Source: Cenococcum geophilum (taxonomy: Eukaryota). From it: DNA of 64,000 nucleotides. Shown piece by piece: positions 47,919 to 55,018 of the stretch. Every line of letters begins with the position of its first letter. The first letter of the stretch is position 1. The stretch lies in the NCBI GenBank assembly GCA_050273025.1, contig CP158635.1:1736001-1800000 (forward strand). Direction: 5' to 3'. The position numbers and the translations under genes are program-made. A model generated the notes under the pieces. It was not told the DNA's origin and ran no database searches. It saw nothing but the letters and a program-made list of their open reading frames with translations.

Positions 47919-50875
47919 ATGGCCAAATTGTCCGCTTTCTCAGATGAGCTGCCCTCCTCAACCAGGTCCCACAGTGAAGAGTATAATGGAGAGAATAACC
48001 CTCAAGGCGAGGAACCCTGGGACCTATTCTTAGGTAGTAAATTTCATAATCCTCCAGTGGGTATCTTACTCCACAGTCCTTTAACGAGCTTGCCCTAACC
48101 CTAACCCTAGAATCTTTAGACGACAATTTATTCTCTCCTACTCCGAGCGAGAGTCCGAGCGAGAGTAAAGATTCTCAACAGGAACTTGTCTCCACACAAT
48201 TGATTCTAGAAACAAGTACGAGAGCAGCATTCTCCTCTATTCTCACACCTCTAAACAAGCTGCAGGGCTTGCAACCGCCGCCGAGTTCTCGAACCTCTTA
48301 AATTCCTCTCGTGCCATTAGCACATCACCCCCGCCCACACATACCAGCCATCGTCTTCCCATAAGAGCGGGCGAAGCTGCAGCTGCCCCCACTGCGTCTA
48401 CAGGCAAGCTAAGGCCTGTCACTCGGCCAGGCTCGAATCCTCAGAGCTCCGGTAAACTACGGAAACCTACCAAGACTCCCGAGAATCTCACAAAATATCC
48501 ACAACGGAGGCGAGATGAGTATGACCTCCCTAGCTCAAGTCAACCAACGCCACGCAAGGCCAATACTACCCGAGAGGGTAGAGATGGACAAGGCACAAGT
48601 AGGCGCGGTAAGACTGCTGGGAATGCAACCCCTGATCTAAATCGTGATGAACCGCAGCCATCGGCTTTCCCTACAGTCCGTCGGACTTCTAAGAGCACTG
48701 AACAGGATGATTTCGAGATTAGATCAAGCCCACCCTCAAGTAGCCACCGACGAAAAAGCAGTCGCCTTAGTGGAGGAAGCCCCATGACCGAGCTAGGGAC
48801 AACCGAACAGAACAAATCCGTTGAGGTGGTGGTTAAGCACAAGAAAAGGAAGTCTAACGACGACATCAAGGAAATCGAAGTCGCGCAGCGCCAACCTCCC
48901 AAACGTGGGCGACCTTCCCGTTTGGAAAAGGCTCGGGAACCTGCGAAAGCCTCCAATGGAACGAAGTCTAGCTCCAAACAAGGACCGGCCATGGAGGCTT
49001 CCAATCCTCCCAATCACCCTGCTAAACGCGGTAGACCTCGTCTCACGGATAGCAACACGCGTTCGGCAGATCCTGCTGAATACGTGCAAGATAACGATGA
49101 AAAGGCCAACAAAGCAAATCCTGCCAAGCGTGGGAGGCCTCGTGCCTTACAAAAGTCCGACATACCCGCGGCATCTTCAAGGGAGACTAGAAGCATCAGA
49201 GCCACTGCTAGCCAAGGAAGTAAATCAAATAAAGCTGTGCTTGCAACACAAACCCGAGCACAGTCAGCAAATAGAGCTCGAGAAAAAAAGGGGCTCGGGA
49301 AACAGACCAAACCTCAGGCCACACATAGTACTCGAGGAAACAGAAGGGCAGGGGAACAACTAGCCCAAGATATGGAGGAAGAGGAAGAGGGGGAAGTGGA
49401 ATCCGATGCGTCAGTGGAGGAAAGCACAGCTGGTGGCCATCAGCAACCATCCAATAATATTGCACGGCAGATACGGAGCGGACCAAGACGAGCGCAAGGC
49501 TTAAAAGGCGAAGCAAGTGGCCGCTTGAAAAGCAAGCCTTCACACCTAGTCAAAAAGATTACCAGTCAAGTATCCCACGATCCCATTGAGGATGAGGAAG
49601 AGGACGAGAGTGAGAGTCAAGATGAAGAATACGTAGAACAAATGGCAGTCCAAGATGATCAGGTTGGCCTGTCAAGCTGCAACGAGGATACGACGGAAGA
49701 GTTGTACGGACAAATGCCTACGCTACAAAAGGTGGCTAAAACCATCGAAGACCTAAAGAGCAAACACCCCTTTGCCACCAACACAGGCCAGGAAATATCT
49801 CGAGAGTGTCGAGACACCCGCGAACTCTTCGAGCCGGCTGCGACGGGCTATGGCCTAGAAACTGACGAAGGGCTCCTCAACTCCCTCGTCAACATCCATG
49901 AAATTATAAATGACCTCAAAGTGAACAGTACCAACGAAGATAAGCTTAAGCTTGTACAAGATATCTACGCCCGTACATTTCCGTCTCTCGTGCGCCTCCT
50001 CGTAAAAATCACCAGTTACTACTCTACCAAAGTCCCCGAATCCTCCAACGACGGTTACGCTCTAGACACCGACTCTCTCGCCACAGTCCTCGCGTTCATC
50101 GAACTAATCCTGTCCCTAGAAGCCAGCGTCAAAAAATGGCCCGAGAAACCAGACACTTCCCTTGCGATCGTCAGACCCATCAGGCACGGCGTCATCAGAC
50201 CACTGCGCTCCATCGCGAAAGCTTTAAGCGCCGAGCTCCGCAGCCAGGAAAAAGCCATCGCGACTAGAAGAGCCCGCGAAGCGCAGGACGAGGCGTGGAG
50301 GCAGGCGGAAGAGCAGGCGGCGCGCCGGCGCGAAGATGCCGCCAAGCTCGCGGCGCGCAAAACGCACTGGCACCTCCTGCACGTCGCGCGCATGTGCTGC
50401 GAGCCGGATGTCTACCGGCACGACCACTTGCGTATGAAAAGCCAGATTTATGACGTGGTGGATCTGGATGCCAATGGCGTGCCGTTTGAGCGCGTCACCG
50501 TGTTCAAGGACCGGGATGGGTCGAGGCGGCCGGAGCAGGGCGGAGGGATGCCGCCGGAGGGGCCGGAGTGGACGGATGAGCAGTGCTTGGCTCTTTTGGA
50601 TGGTTTGAGAATCTATCAAGGTGAGCGGCTCTTTGTCTGTTTCGTGGCAACGTGCCTTCGTGCGGAGTTGACACATACTGGTTTTGTTACCAGGCCCTCA
50701 AGTCTTCGAGAAGATCTTCAAGAGATACTGCAGACCTGGCGGTATCCTACGGCGGTATAATGTCGAGGAAATCACGCAGCAGGCCGCTTATCTTCGGAAG
50801 ATGGCCATTAAGGCCGACGAGACAAGCGGAGAGGAAACGGAACAGTGGATTCTGGATATTCCCGTACTGCGGTAA
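47919..50875 (+). CDS. Nuclear protein with three AT-hooks and a C-terminal Myb/SANT-like domain
   Basis: Inferred ATG at 47919 with introns 48061-48110 and 48216-48265 restoring frame. KRGRP x3. C-terminal WTDEQCLALLDGL..GPQVFEKIF after an intron at ~50621-50693. Confidence 0.75.
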
Positions 50876-51371: not shown

Positions 51372-54262
51372 TCACACACTCTCCAACAACCCCGCCGCCA
51401 CCGTCGCGCCATCCGCCCTTAGCACGATCCTCGTGCCGAAATCCAGCGGCATCTCGCGCTCCATCTCAACCACGACTCTCGCCACCGAGCCCGGCTGCAC
51501 AATCCGCGGCCTCTTCTTCTCCACCTCCCCACTCTGCTTATTCAGCACAGCCACTAGCCTCGCAACCTTCGCTGGCGCATTCATGCGGCCCCTAAAAACA
51601 TCGACCGACATCGGAACAACGTGCTCGAAGGCCAGGATCTTAGCCTGGAAGGCCTTGACGTTCTTGATCGGGGCCGCAGGGGAGCAGATTATGTCGCCGA
51701 GGCGCAGGTGGACGGCGTCGATGTCGGCGAGGTGCAGCGTGGCGATGTGGCCCGCGACGGCCCAGTCGACGGGCTCGCCCTCGACCTCGATGCCCTTGAC
51801 GGTGGCGGTTTCGCCGGCGGGCATCGCGAGGACCGCGTCGCCGACCTGGAGAGAGCCGGCGTCCAGGCGCCCGGAGATGGAGAGCGGGTTCATGATGCCG
51901 CCTCTAAAGACGTCGGAAACGGTGAGGCGGAGGGGGAGGGAGAGGGCGCGTTTGGCGGGCTCCGAGGCGTCGAGCGCTTCGACGAGGGTGGGGCCTGTGT
52001 ACCAGTTTCCGGGTATGGTGCCTTCAGGGGGCGGCCGGATGATGTTGTCTCCAATAAGGCCAGCACAGGGGATGAAAGCCAGATTCTTGGGAGAAAATGA
52101 GGCGGCGGTTAGGAAAGCGGTCATTTGCTGGGATATCTCGTCGAATCGCGCTTGGCTCCAGGAGATAGTATCCATCTTATTAACAGCGATGACGAGCCTC
52201 TGAACTCCCATACTTCGTACCAGTAATGCATGTTCTTTCGTTTGACCCTTTAGTCCAGATTCAAAACTATTCGTCCCTGCATCTATGACAAGAACCGCAA
52301 AATCAGCCTGGCTGGCGCCGGCAATCATGTTAGGAATGAAATCCTGATGGCCTGGTGCATCCAGAATCGTAAAACGCGTTTTTTCGGTCTCAAAATAGTT
52401 TGTTGCGATATCAACAGTCACGCCACGGCTTCGCTCTTCAGATGTCTGGTCCATCACCCAGGCAAGAGCGAAGGATGACTTGCCAATGGTTTCAGCTTCT
52501 TTTCGAAGTTTGTCCACAGAACGTTGATCAATGACTTTGAGATCGTAAAGAAGACGGCCCATGAGAGTGCTTTTACCATGATCAACGTGGCCTACGTGGA
52601 ATTAGTCTACTGGACTAATTTTCCAAGGATTTGAAGCCTTACCGATAACCACAAAGCTTGCCGCTTTCTTCATGTTGGAGTTCTCGAACTCTTGCAATAC
52701 GTTGAGATTTTTGCTTTTCACCTTTGGAGTCTCTTCAACTGTCAAGGAGGAGACAGACTCAGCAAGTTTGTTGATTAATTTGTCTCCATTGGCCTGTTTT
52801 GAGTGACCTTTCTTGGGTTTGTGGCCTGTTATACATTAGATTAGGAACCATTGTCGAAATCAAGCGCGGCGCGCACCTTTCGCCTGCGCATTCGTCACAA
52901 TGTCGTCCGGGCTAGGACCTGCAAATGGATTCGCATTAGTAAACACTTTTTCATGTGCATATGGTAATGAAAACATGCTGCCCTCCGGGGATCGTGGTTG
53001 GAACTCTATATGACTAGTACCGATCATTGTAGCAGCGAATGTTGATGGAGGGGCCCGGAGATCTGGGATTTCCACAATGGTGCTAGGTTCTGATACTGGA
53101 CTGGAAGGTTCTTCTTGCCTTTGGACAGGCGGTGGGCTTGGAGATTTCTTCCTGCGAACTGGATACCTAGTTCGAGCCGATTTTGATTTCAGCAGTTCGC
53201 CTGGCCGTTCAGACAATCCAAGGATCGGCGAAGCGTTCTCCTTTGCTTTGCCTTTAATATTTAGCCGATCAAGAAGAGCGACAGCTCTATCAGGCTCCTT
53301 GTCAGGGTGTCCATCAGCGCTTGCAGGGCCCGAGGCAGCCTTTCCCTCTTCTTGTTTCTTCTTACGAGCAGCTGCGAGGGCGGCTAATTTGGAAGGTTTG
53401 GAAGAACCTCCAAGAAGTCCACCACGAGGATACAGGGATTCCACCATAATCTCTCCGCGGCGATGGATTGGCACATTCAACCAGGGTGTTTCATGGAAGA
53501 ACTTAGCCGCAGAGACCGCCACATGCTCATATGATAATTGGCGTGGAATTGGATATGGAAACACTGCGCCTGGACAGTGTTAAGACCAATCTGAGCTTAG
53601 TAGGATTCTTGAAATGCGATGTTGGCTGGCTACAAGACAAGGATACATTCCAGATCCAACTAGCACCGGAGGGCAGCATGTACATTTCTTCGAGTCTGAA
53701 ATGAGAATATTTGACTTACCCGAGGCCTTCTTTCCCTCTATTTTCGCAGCCGAGTTTGCTGCCTGATCAAATCGAGACACTTGTTTGGGTTTATTTGCTT
53801 GCGTGGCAGCTTTAGGGGCAGGAGCATGCTTGTCTAAGCCCAATTAGCTCAATGCGCTAATTGAAGTGATCGCTATCTTACTCTTTAGGTATGTAACGGA
53901 TTTGCCAACGTCGTAGTAATAATGCCATAAAGCTTCCTGTATCTCTACATCCGATACCGATATGCTAGGGTCGAGAGCTGCCTTAACTTGCACTGTGCCT
54001 TGCCGCATCTGCTCTGAGGTCCCGAGGGAAATAAGTATAAATTGTTTCAGAAGTGGTGGAGTAAACTGTGAGCTGTGGTACCTCTATCTTCGGGACCCAA
54101 CCCTGAACGCGGCGCTAATTAGCAGATGTCCTTATTTGTACTATAGTCCATGGTTAGGTACTCACCATCTCCTCCCCCTTCGTCGGAATAATCATCATCG
54201 TACAGGCCGTCCTCATCATAGTCGAGTTGTTTTACCCTCTGATGGCCGGTCTTCGGGGGCAT
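51372..54262 (-). CDS. HBS1: Hbs1-like translational GTPase (HBS1/SKI7 locus)
   Basis: N-terminal IQEALWHYYYDVGKSV; G-motifs GHVDHGKS, ERSRGVTVD, DAPGH, NKMD; EF-Tu-like domains II/III. Exons approximately 54262-54166, 54102-54082, 54013-53883, 53833-53720, 53569-52877, 52825-52643, 52591-51372. Confidence 0.95.
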
Positions 54263-55018
54263 CGTTAGCTGAGTACTGTTTTCTGCTCCGGAAAATTAGA
54301 GAATTTGTGTAGATGAGAGGAGGAGTGGCCGAGGAAAGGTTGTCGTATATGTTTGAGGGAGGTCAAAACAATAAAGGGTATATGTCCAGGGTTTAGTTGG
54401 CGTGATGTTGTCAAATCCAACAGCCACTCGAAATCAACGTCCCGAGGGCACGATTCCCCGCGCTAGTTCGTTCGTGGTCTAGTAGCCAAATCTACGTCAC
54501 AACCTTGGAGAAACAACCATCCATCCTTCACATATTCATGCTCTCCTTTGAAGACTTCATTATTGTACTCGAAACTAGTTACGCTATGCAGAACGCTGGA
54601 TTCATATTCCATAGGCAGCCTATAAAGAACGCTTAGAATCTCATTCTGGTTAACTACTCTTAAACTGCTGCCTTATAGGCTCATGTAAGCTGTGGCTCAG
54701 CAACTACGCCACATCAGGCATCCCCAATTCCAGCCTCCACCAAGTCTTTGCCACAGTAAATAATTGAGCAATGACAGTTGATCAGGCATTCAGAAGTTTA
54801 TTTGATCACGGCAGTGTTGTACTGCGCCGCAACGCCGGTCAATATATTCAGGCGCTGTCGCGTTAACACCCTGCGTAGCCGTCGACATATTCGAACCTAT
54901 ACATTACATCTGCACTTCCACTCGAAGTACACGAGTTATCATTTTCCATTATATTTTCCTTCCTACATATAATTCTTCCTTTCGCCCAAGAATAGAATTT
55001 TACTCTGCCGTCATCGTC

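Follow-up and report, generated by a model that had tools for sequence, protein, structure and literature searches.

Acceptor choice within an HBS1/SKI7 gene of Cenococcum geophilum: two mRNA forms, one Hbs1-like and one Ski7-like

Most ascomycetes have a single SKI7/HBS1 gene (PMC3597508). In Aspergillus nidulans, reverse transcription polymerase chain reaction showed that the mRNA forms of this gene arise through the choice of acceptor (Marshall et al. 2013, PMC3597508): one intron has two 3' splice sites, the distal one "just upstream of motif S3", and the motifs S1 and S2 are part of the long form only. The proximal site gives Ski7 and the distal site gives Hbs1; the event is reported as conserved in A. 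fumigatus and across animals, fungi, and plants (PMC7491326). Exon skipping is described as the basidiomycete route (PMC3597508), and cassette exons are described for plants (PMC6143672). These statements, and those on other systems below, follow the passages on SKI7/HBS1 in the papers cited. Here we describe an HBS1/SKI7 gene on the minus strand of a 64,000-nucleotide (nt) stretch of the Cenococcum geophilum genome (NCBI GenBank assembly GCA_050273025.1, contig CP158635.1, positions 1,736,001 to 1,800,000), which we call the window; coordinates are those of the window. A sequence-only reading of this stretch had proposed that a 693-nt exon of the gene (53569-52877) is a cassette exon, which is skipped to give Hbs1 and included to give a Ski7-like form.

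The switch very probably consists of one donor (53720/53719) that is joined either to a proximal acceptor (53570/53569) or to a distal acceptor (52919/52918) inside the 693-nt exon, and not of the skipping of a cassette exon (Table 1). The short form encodes 602 amino acids; it is without 217 codons of the exon and keeps the last 14, which start with PSPDDIV, so that the protein junction reads ...KKASG-PSPDDIVTNAQAK-GHKPKK.... Both the long and the short form keep the open reading frame in the translation of the splice model. This arrangement is that of A. nidulans, which also belongs to the Pezizomycotina: two acceptors, proximal and distal, the latter just before S3, S1 and S2 in the long form only, and a shared GTPase. 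The distal AG falls at Ala216/Gly217, directly before PSPDD, and the other motifs all lie within 53569-52919. Compared with the description of A. nidulans, for which four introns are reported, the window gene has six introns and includes a 21-nt microexon. A further difference is the 51-nt intron that follows the distal acceptor after just 42 nt, because of which the locus looks like a cassette exon.

The same use of the two acceptors in one gene, proximal for a Ski7-like and distal for an Hbs1-like form, is described for Lachancea kluyveri (L. kluyveri; PMC3597508, PMC7491326); there, western blot and complementation demonstrated the two proteins and their distinct functions, whereas the window gene is known from its mRNAs. 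The resemblance to Saccharomyces cerevisiae is one of protein sequence: Patch 4 residues align with Ski7 and the GTPase matches Hbs1 (PDB 5jea, 5g06, 8qca, 8qcf, 3p26, 5m1j), but S. cerevisiae has duplicated, intron-less SKI7 and HBS1 genes, whereas the window has one spliced gene. Human HBS1L/HBS1L3 (SKI7) is also one gene with Hbs1 and Ski7-like forms that have a common N-terminal domain (PMC4942675, PMC5389692, PMC11540850; PDB 9g8m). However, the human Ski7 form has an alternative last exon and is without the GTPase, which the fungal long form keeps, and the human switch is the inclusion of an exon with a different 3' end, in contrast to the choice of acceptor in the window.

Four RNA runs, of 24 found, were aligned to positions 52400-54350 of the window, with differences from the window reported from 1 read in 100. 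Run X21 is raw stranded RNA-seq, of which approximately 12% was read; 63 of its reads aligned, mostly with 95-99% identity to the window. All of these reads share a single orientation, the one that a stranded library should give for a minus-strand transcript. Run X1, which is from a different study than X21, consists of metatranscriptome contigs without differences from the window, and X15 and X16 are contigs whose library type is unrecorded. All six introns of the gene were seen as junctions in these runs, including both that flank the 693-nt exon. The long-form junction from 53720 to 53569, which removes the 150-nt intron, was present in six X21 reads with three start positions. The junction 52825/52877, which removes the 51-nt intron, was present in an X1 contig (depth 96.7), an X15 contig (depth 74.6), and one X21 read. 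The alternative junction from 53720 to 52918, which skips 52919-53719 (801 nt, GT..AG), was present in three X21 reads with three start positions, and in one X1 contig with a depth of 106.6. Both mRNA forms exist.

The depth of coverage differs along the gene. In X1, an 858-nt contig that covers the alternative region (52890-53747) has a depth of 27.1, and the flanking exons have depths between 96.7 and 140.7. This contig, which is also present in X15, crosses the 150-nt intron unspliced, as an X16 contig (53512-53669) crosses the proximal acceptor unspliced; the coverage of the alternative region in these runs may therefore come in part from pre-mRNA rather than from long-isoform mRNA. According to the list of open reading frames, retention of the 150-nt intron stops the frame at a TAA at 53579-53577. 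The unspliced contig may be a sign that the 801-nt intron is removed slowly, or that retention is regulated. No listed X1 or X15 piece runs through any other intron of the gene, unlike this contig with its depth of about 27. In X21, the depth within the 150-nt intron is 1.3-1.8, compared to 2.6-12.6 in the alternative region. The ratio of junction reads in X21, six for the long form versus three for the short form, probably underestimates the short form, because its reads meet a second junction only 42 nt later and are likely to be under-aligned; the shorter side of the short-junction reads is at most 41 nt, and the depth over 52664-52861 is only 0.03-0.44.

The distal acceptor lies in coding sequence, where the stretch Thr-Asn...Phe-Ala-Gly doubles as a branch-point-like motif and an acceptor. 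Of the 54 AG dinucleotides that lie 40 nt or more downstream of the donor, seven have a CTRAY at branch-point distance; only three of these seven would also keep an open reading frame, and the observed distal site is one of them. The pentamer CTAAT is also found 11-17 nt before the acceptor in four of the six introns of the gene. We compared the site with 80 orthologous loci from metagenome contigs, of which 78 carry PSPDD (L070 and L071 do not); together with the window, these gave 56 distinct contexts of 75 nt. The codon before the Gly ends in A, giving AG/G exactly at the distal site, in 40 of the 56 contexts, compared to a background of A at third codon positions in the same open reading frames of 26.6% for all codons and 29.2% for Ala codons. 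A CTRAY 12-45 nt upstream accompanies the inner AG in 23 of these 40 contexts, versus 2 of the 16 contexts without the inner AG. The contexts are related to one another and the counts are not independent events; nonetheless, the excess of AG is large. A stop codon occurs within 30 codons after PSPDD in 46 of 51 contexts that could be evaluated (the other five have too little flanking sequence); this group therefore generally has an intron soon after S3, and with it a short segment that contains S3 only. The contexts without the inner AG include L012, L014, L016, L018, L022, and L030, which are Alternaria-like, and L007, L008, L026, L039, L054, L063, L064, L066, L068, and L073. Lineages without the inner AG may make Hbs1 by another route. 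In the Alternaria-like L016, phase-1 introns flank the Ski7-specific exon, and a skip of the whole exon would be in frame.

Several statements of the sequence-only reading were confirmed by sequence and RNA: the 693-nt exon lies between phase-1 introns of 150 nt (53719-53570) and 51 nt (52876-52826), both GT..AG; its removal joins ...KKASG to HKPKKG in frame; and both junctions expected upon inclusion of the exon were found. That one gene has Hbs1-like and Ski7-like forms also held, as two mRNA forms were seen and the profile of the region matches only Ski7 and HBS1L3 in the PDB. The skipping of the exon was not borne out. In a true cassette, the Hbs1 form would join 53720 to 52825 and would lose the entire Patch 4-like motif as well. 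Both flanking introns are in phase 1, as this would require; however, all six introns of the gene (GT..AG; 63, 68, 48, 150, 51, and 51 nt in gene order) are in phase 1, so that each internal exon is symmetric and could be skipped without loss of frame. Frame compatibility alone therefore cannot tell a cassette exon from acceptor choice. The phase-1 layout is shared by orthologous loci without the inner AG, L016 among them, and these could use skipping. Exon skipping is also reported for the basidiomycetes Cryptococcus neoformans (C. neoformans) and Ustilago maydis (U. maydis) (PMC3597508); their loci and those of plants, with cassette exons (PMC6143672), resemble the window in being dual-function with an optional Ski7-specific motif, but the skipping itself is absent from the four RNA runs. 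The junction from 53720 to 52825 was found in none of X21, X1, X15, and X16, at a limited depth that could miss a rare event, while the junction from 53720 to 52918 was found in two of the same runs. A cassette exon would also leave unexplained why an AG is conserved, together with a branch-like motif, within the coding sequence. We consider a true cassette improbable for this gene.

If, alternatively, only the long protein were functional and performed both roles, the product of the distal acceptor would be splicing noise. The long form does contain every domain of the short form, and in X21 the reads for its junction outnumber those for the short one (6 versus 3). Yet the latter are likely under-aligned, as described above, and the X1 contigs cover the short junction roughly four times as deeply as the alternative region (106.6 versus 27.1). 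Noise would also be at odds with the presence of the AG in 40 of 56 contexts where about 28% is expected, and in L. kluyveri the two isoforms are described as functionally distinct (PMC3597508, PMC7491326). This makes splicing noise a quite improbable explanation, and the preferred reading remains that of two functional products obtained by acceptor choice.

The alternative region is conserved at the protein level, and the exon is clearly no product of chance. With the exon peptide as query against longer proteins, 274 proteins matched at E<=1e-3, the best being from Glonium stellatum with 76% identity. Among the 120 matches listed, almost all are proteins from Pezizomycotina of about 700-900 amino acids that combine an HBS1_N domain and the GTPase; they come from Dothideomycetes, Eurotiomycetes, Lecanoromycetes, and Leotiomycetes. 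A profile of the region retrieved 685 cluster representatives at E<=1e-3. Alignments of 23 sequences revealed conserved islands in a variable background rich in proline and charged residues (Table 1).

We searched the PDB with the profile of the 23 sequences and considered matches at E<=10. All five matches are Ski7 or HBS1L3: 9g8m_E (5.1e-4), 8qcf_L (1.2e-3), 8qca_E (9e-3), 5g06_P (0.059), and 5jea_K (0.11). The SKI7-like motif, DLRAPPSTFAATMIG, aligns with LAARPSAFASTLC of human HBS1L3 (9g8m_E, E=5.1e-4); within the same match, LRAPPSTFAATM, a putative exosome-binding motif of the RxxxFxxxL type, aligns with LAARPSAFASTL, and it fits the consensus of the SKI7-like motif quoted in PMC6143672. 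In the profile search, this motif had no match to the corresponding segment of yeast Ski7. The Patch 4-like (S3) motif PFxF..SPDD[IV]V, present in the window as NPFAGPSPDDIVTNAQ, aligns with both yeast Ski7 (8qcf_L, 8qca_E) and human HBS1L3; F215, P218-D222, and V224 are invariant in the 23 sequences. The 42-nt segment that both isoforms retain aligns to PSPDDIIQSAQ of yeast Ski7 and to SPDDIVKANQ of human HBS1L3. The four yeast Ski7 chains that matched (8qcf_L, 8qca_E, 5g06_P, 5jea_K) align over Patch 4, with yeast F207, P212, D213, and D214 (native numbering of 5g06) falling on F215, P220, D221, and D222 of the window; these yeast residues are described as Patch 4 contacts with Csl4 (PMC4942675). 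The distal acceptor therefore splits Patch 4: the half with the Phe is found in the long form only, and the PSPDDIV helix in both forms.

The profile also aligns SKLAALAAARKKK...LLDRL to the start of yeast Ski7, MSLLEQLARKR...SLLERL, in a match below the threshold (4.6 bits, i-Evalue 260). In yeast Ski7, the helices H1 (residues 1-12) and H2 (residues 29-34) bind Ski3 (PMC10659929). Exon residues 50-112 alone did not retrieve Ski7 from the PDB; the two matches obtained were unrelated (an RNA helicase, E=1.1, and mL54, E=6.8). A phmmer search of the PDB with the single 230-residue exon peptide gave no match at E<=10, and the profile was needed. The likeness of the S1/S2-like helices to the Ski3-binding helices is therefore no more than a tentative lead. 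The peptides quoted in the sequence-only reading are indeed encoded in the exon, and its comparison with Ski7 held for SPDDIV, in keeping with the profile matches to Ski7 and HBS1L3, and less well for SKLAALAAARKKK...LLDRL as Ski-complex-binding helices; the conservation in orthologues that it had called for was found, both in the invariant residues of the 23 sequences and in the 685 cluster representatives.

The conserved block at exon residues 20-56, which lies N-terminal of the S1-like helix, had no Pfam match, and no PDB match covered that part. The Pezizomycotina forms differ in this block from yeast: it matches no solved Ski7 chain of yeast, nor of human. Yeast Ski7 lacks the HBS1_N domain and is described as starting at S1 (PMC3597508); no yeast counterpart of the block is therefore expected. 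For the 693-nt exon as a whole, Pfam returned no family besides a match of the exon peptide to SWI-SNF_Ssr4_C below the threshold (E=0.093, 12.5 bits against a cut-off of 22), which we took as a chance match. An AlphaFold model of the alternative region is of low confidence (mean predicted local distance difference test (pLDDT) score 60.5, predicted template modelling (pTM) score 0.18) and was used for secondary structure only. It predicts disorder with helices at residues 60-77, 93-104, 176-181, 202-205, and 220-229, most of them on conserved islands; the helix at 220-229, encoded by the 42-nt segment, is the block with the highest pLDDT.

That the alternative region is mainly intron, with only the short Hbs1 genuinely produced and the long frame being an artefact of annotating a long intron that is spliced slowly, could be argued from the X1, X15, and X16 contigs, which run unspliced through a 150-nt intron that would stop the frame, and from a depth over the region of about a quarter of that of the flanking exons, but we rejected this possibility as scarcely credible on the protein-level conservation of the 217 open codons across Pezizomycotina, with invariant residues, the homology of the region to Ski7 and HBS1L3 motifs, the removal of the 150-nt intron in six X21 reads, and the lower X21 depth in that intron (1.3-1.8) than in the region (2.6-12.6).

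Some observations weigh against a switch by acceptor choice between an Hbs1 and a Ski7-like protein. The RNA evidence is thin: it includes 63 X21 reads from approximately 12% of a run, from a strain mostly 95-99% identical to the window. The long-form junction was seen in X21 only, the contigs of X1, X15, and X16 being unspliced at that position, and contig depths are a poor measure of the isoform ratio. The inner AG is absent in 16 of the 56 orthologous contexts, and the site is not universal. Finally, at 4.6 bits the S1/S2-like helices do not match yeast Ski7 significantly, and a search with the single sequence retrieved no Ski7.

With these points taken into account, we consider it highly likely that one gene gives rise, by acceptor choice, to a ribosome-rescue Hbs1 and to an exosome-adaptor Ski7-like protein. 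We infer from the literature on relatives that both proteins would be made, what each would bind, and how the functions would be divided between them. Use of the proximal acceptor, with removal of the 150-nt intron, would give a protein of 819 amino acids with about 217 extra, largely disordered residues that contain short helical motifs and sit between the shared HBS1_N domain and the shared GTPase. The S1/S2-like helices would bind Ski3, and the SKI7-like motif together with the full Patch 4-like motif would, by homology, bind the exosome. The long isoform would in this way link the exosome to the Ski2-3-8 helicase in the manner of Ski7; judged by homology, it would consist of a 40S/Hbs1-type N-domain, a putative Ski3-binding part, an exosome-binding part, and the GTPase. 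Use of the distal acceptor, with removal of the 801-nt intron, would give a protein of 602 amino acids that is essentially Hbs1 (N-domain, short linker, GTPase) and would deliver Dom34 to stalled ribosomes.

The gene is very probably the undivided HBS1/SKI7 gene of a filamentous ascomycete. The last exon matches GTP_EFTU (1.9e-47), D2 (4e-7), and D3 (9.4e-8) in Pfam. The best PDB matches of the GTPase are to Hbs1, namely mammalian Hbs1l (1.8e-110), Schizosaccharomyces pombe (2.5e-89), and S. cerevisiae (3.7e-82), ahead of eEF1A (8.9e-76) and eRF3 (6.5e-73). Its translation contains GHVDHGKS, DAPGH, and NKMD, which we take to be the G1, G3, and G4 motifs. The closest named relative of the protein is that of Glonium stellatum, a dothideomycete. 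The Glonium stellatum protein model (P0001) has extra residues, GKLDILIFGL...KKL, at the position of the 150-nt intron of the window, and the upstream linker is missing from it; a comparison of the two sequences suggests that an intron boundary is mis-set in that annotation.

The 21-nt microexon (54102-54082, minus strand), which encodes GLGPEDR between the 63-nt and 68-nt introns, was confirmed by junctions in X1 contigs; at its position, X15 and X16 represent a diverged copy with 18 letters that do not align to the window. On the plus strand, an open frame of 863 codons from stop to stop (48169-50760) lies just below the gene's 3' end, so that the two are convergent neighbours. K, R, S, E, and P are abundant in its translation, in which AKRGRPR-like (AT-hook-like) stretches recur.

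Table 1. Features of the HBS1/SKI7 gene and of its alternative region, in window coordinates. Residues are numbered within the 693-nt exon; invariance refers to the 23-sequence alignments.
Feature	Position	Strand	Details
HBS1/SKI7 gene	51372..54262	(-)	seven exons, ATG to stop, spliced open frame of 819 amino acids
Exons 1 to 7	54262-54166, 54102-54082, 54013-53882, 53833-53720, 53569-52877, 52825-52643, 52591-51372	(-)	splice model and translation
Exon 3, HBS1_N domain, common to both isoforms	53882..54013	(-)	Pfam PF08938, E=8.2e-16
GT of the shared 5' splice site	53718..53719	(-)	exon 4 ends at 53720, phase 1; CCTCGG/GTAAGT; both junctions start at 53720
150-nt intron, removed via the proximal 3' splice site (AG 53571-53570), giving the long Ski7-like mRNA	53570..53719	(-)	X21 junction
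Alternative region, 651 nt, 217 codons, long isoform only	52919..53569	(-)	skipped by the 801-nt junction
Block FFxDxPWLNVPxHRxGxIxVEPLYPRGGLLGG, residues 20-56	53400..53510	(-)	W29, P33, L51, G53, G54 invariant
S1-like basic helix KPSKLAALAAARKKK, residues 57-71	53355..53399	(-)	S59, K60, L61, A63-A66, R68 invariant
S2-like helix AVALLDRL, residues 95-102	53262..53285	(-)	L102 nearly invariant
SKI7-like motif DLRAPPSTFAATMIG, residues 169-183	53019..53063	(-)	S175, A178, G183 invariant
Conserved islands (23 sequences)			FFxDxPWLNVP...YPRGGLLGG; SKLAALAAARKKK; LLDRL; RYPxRRKSPSP; RAPPSTFA; F.LPY; FAGPSPDD[IV]V.NAQ.KG
CTAAT branch-point-like motif in coding sequence (Thr-Asn codons)	52935..52939	(-)	19 nt upstream of the distal AG; sequence
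Distal acceptor AG inside the supposed cassette exon	52919..52920	(-)	third base of Ala216 (GCA) and first base of Gly217; RNA junction
42-nt segment in both isoforms, between the distal acceptor and the next donor	52877..52918	(-)	gene model and RNA
51-nt constitutive intron after the S3 segment	52826..52876	(-)	junction in X1, X15, X21
Last exon, translational GTPase domains G, II, and III, then stop codon	51372..52591	(-)	Pfam

The conserved N-terminal block may be an extra partner-binding module of the Pezizomycotina Ski7 isoform, and the lineages that are without the inner AG but keep phase-1 introns on both sides may have switched from acceptor choice to true exon skipping; either may hold, and we regard both as tentative and rather doubtful. 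To our knowledge, neither is described in the literature passages on SKI7/HBS1. If the switch took place, a cassette exon would be the right model for lineages without the inner AG (for example, Alternaria-like loci), though not for the window.

Earlier publications already cover the phenomenon, what it does, and its conservation in Pezizomycotina, and the locus would not surprise a specialist. For the gene model, our results amount to a correction: two isoforms of 819 and 602 amino acids should be annotated, with a shared donor and an internal acceptor at 52919/52918, in place of exon skipping. The window follows the ascomycete route and provides a further example, here from a dothideomycete, of a published kind of locus; at the RNA level, it lends additional support to the view that the choice of acceptor in SKI7/HBS1 is ancestral in Ascomycota.

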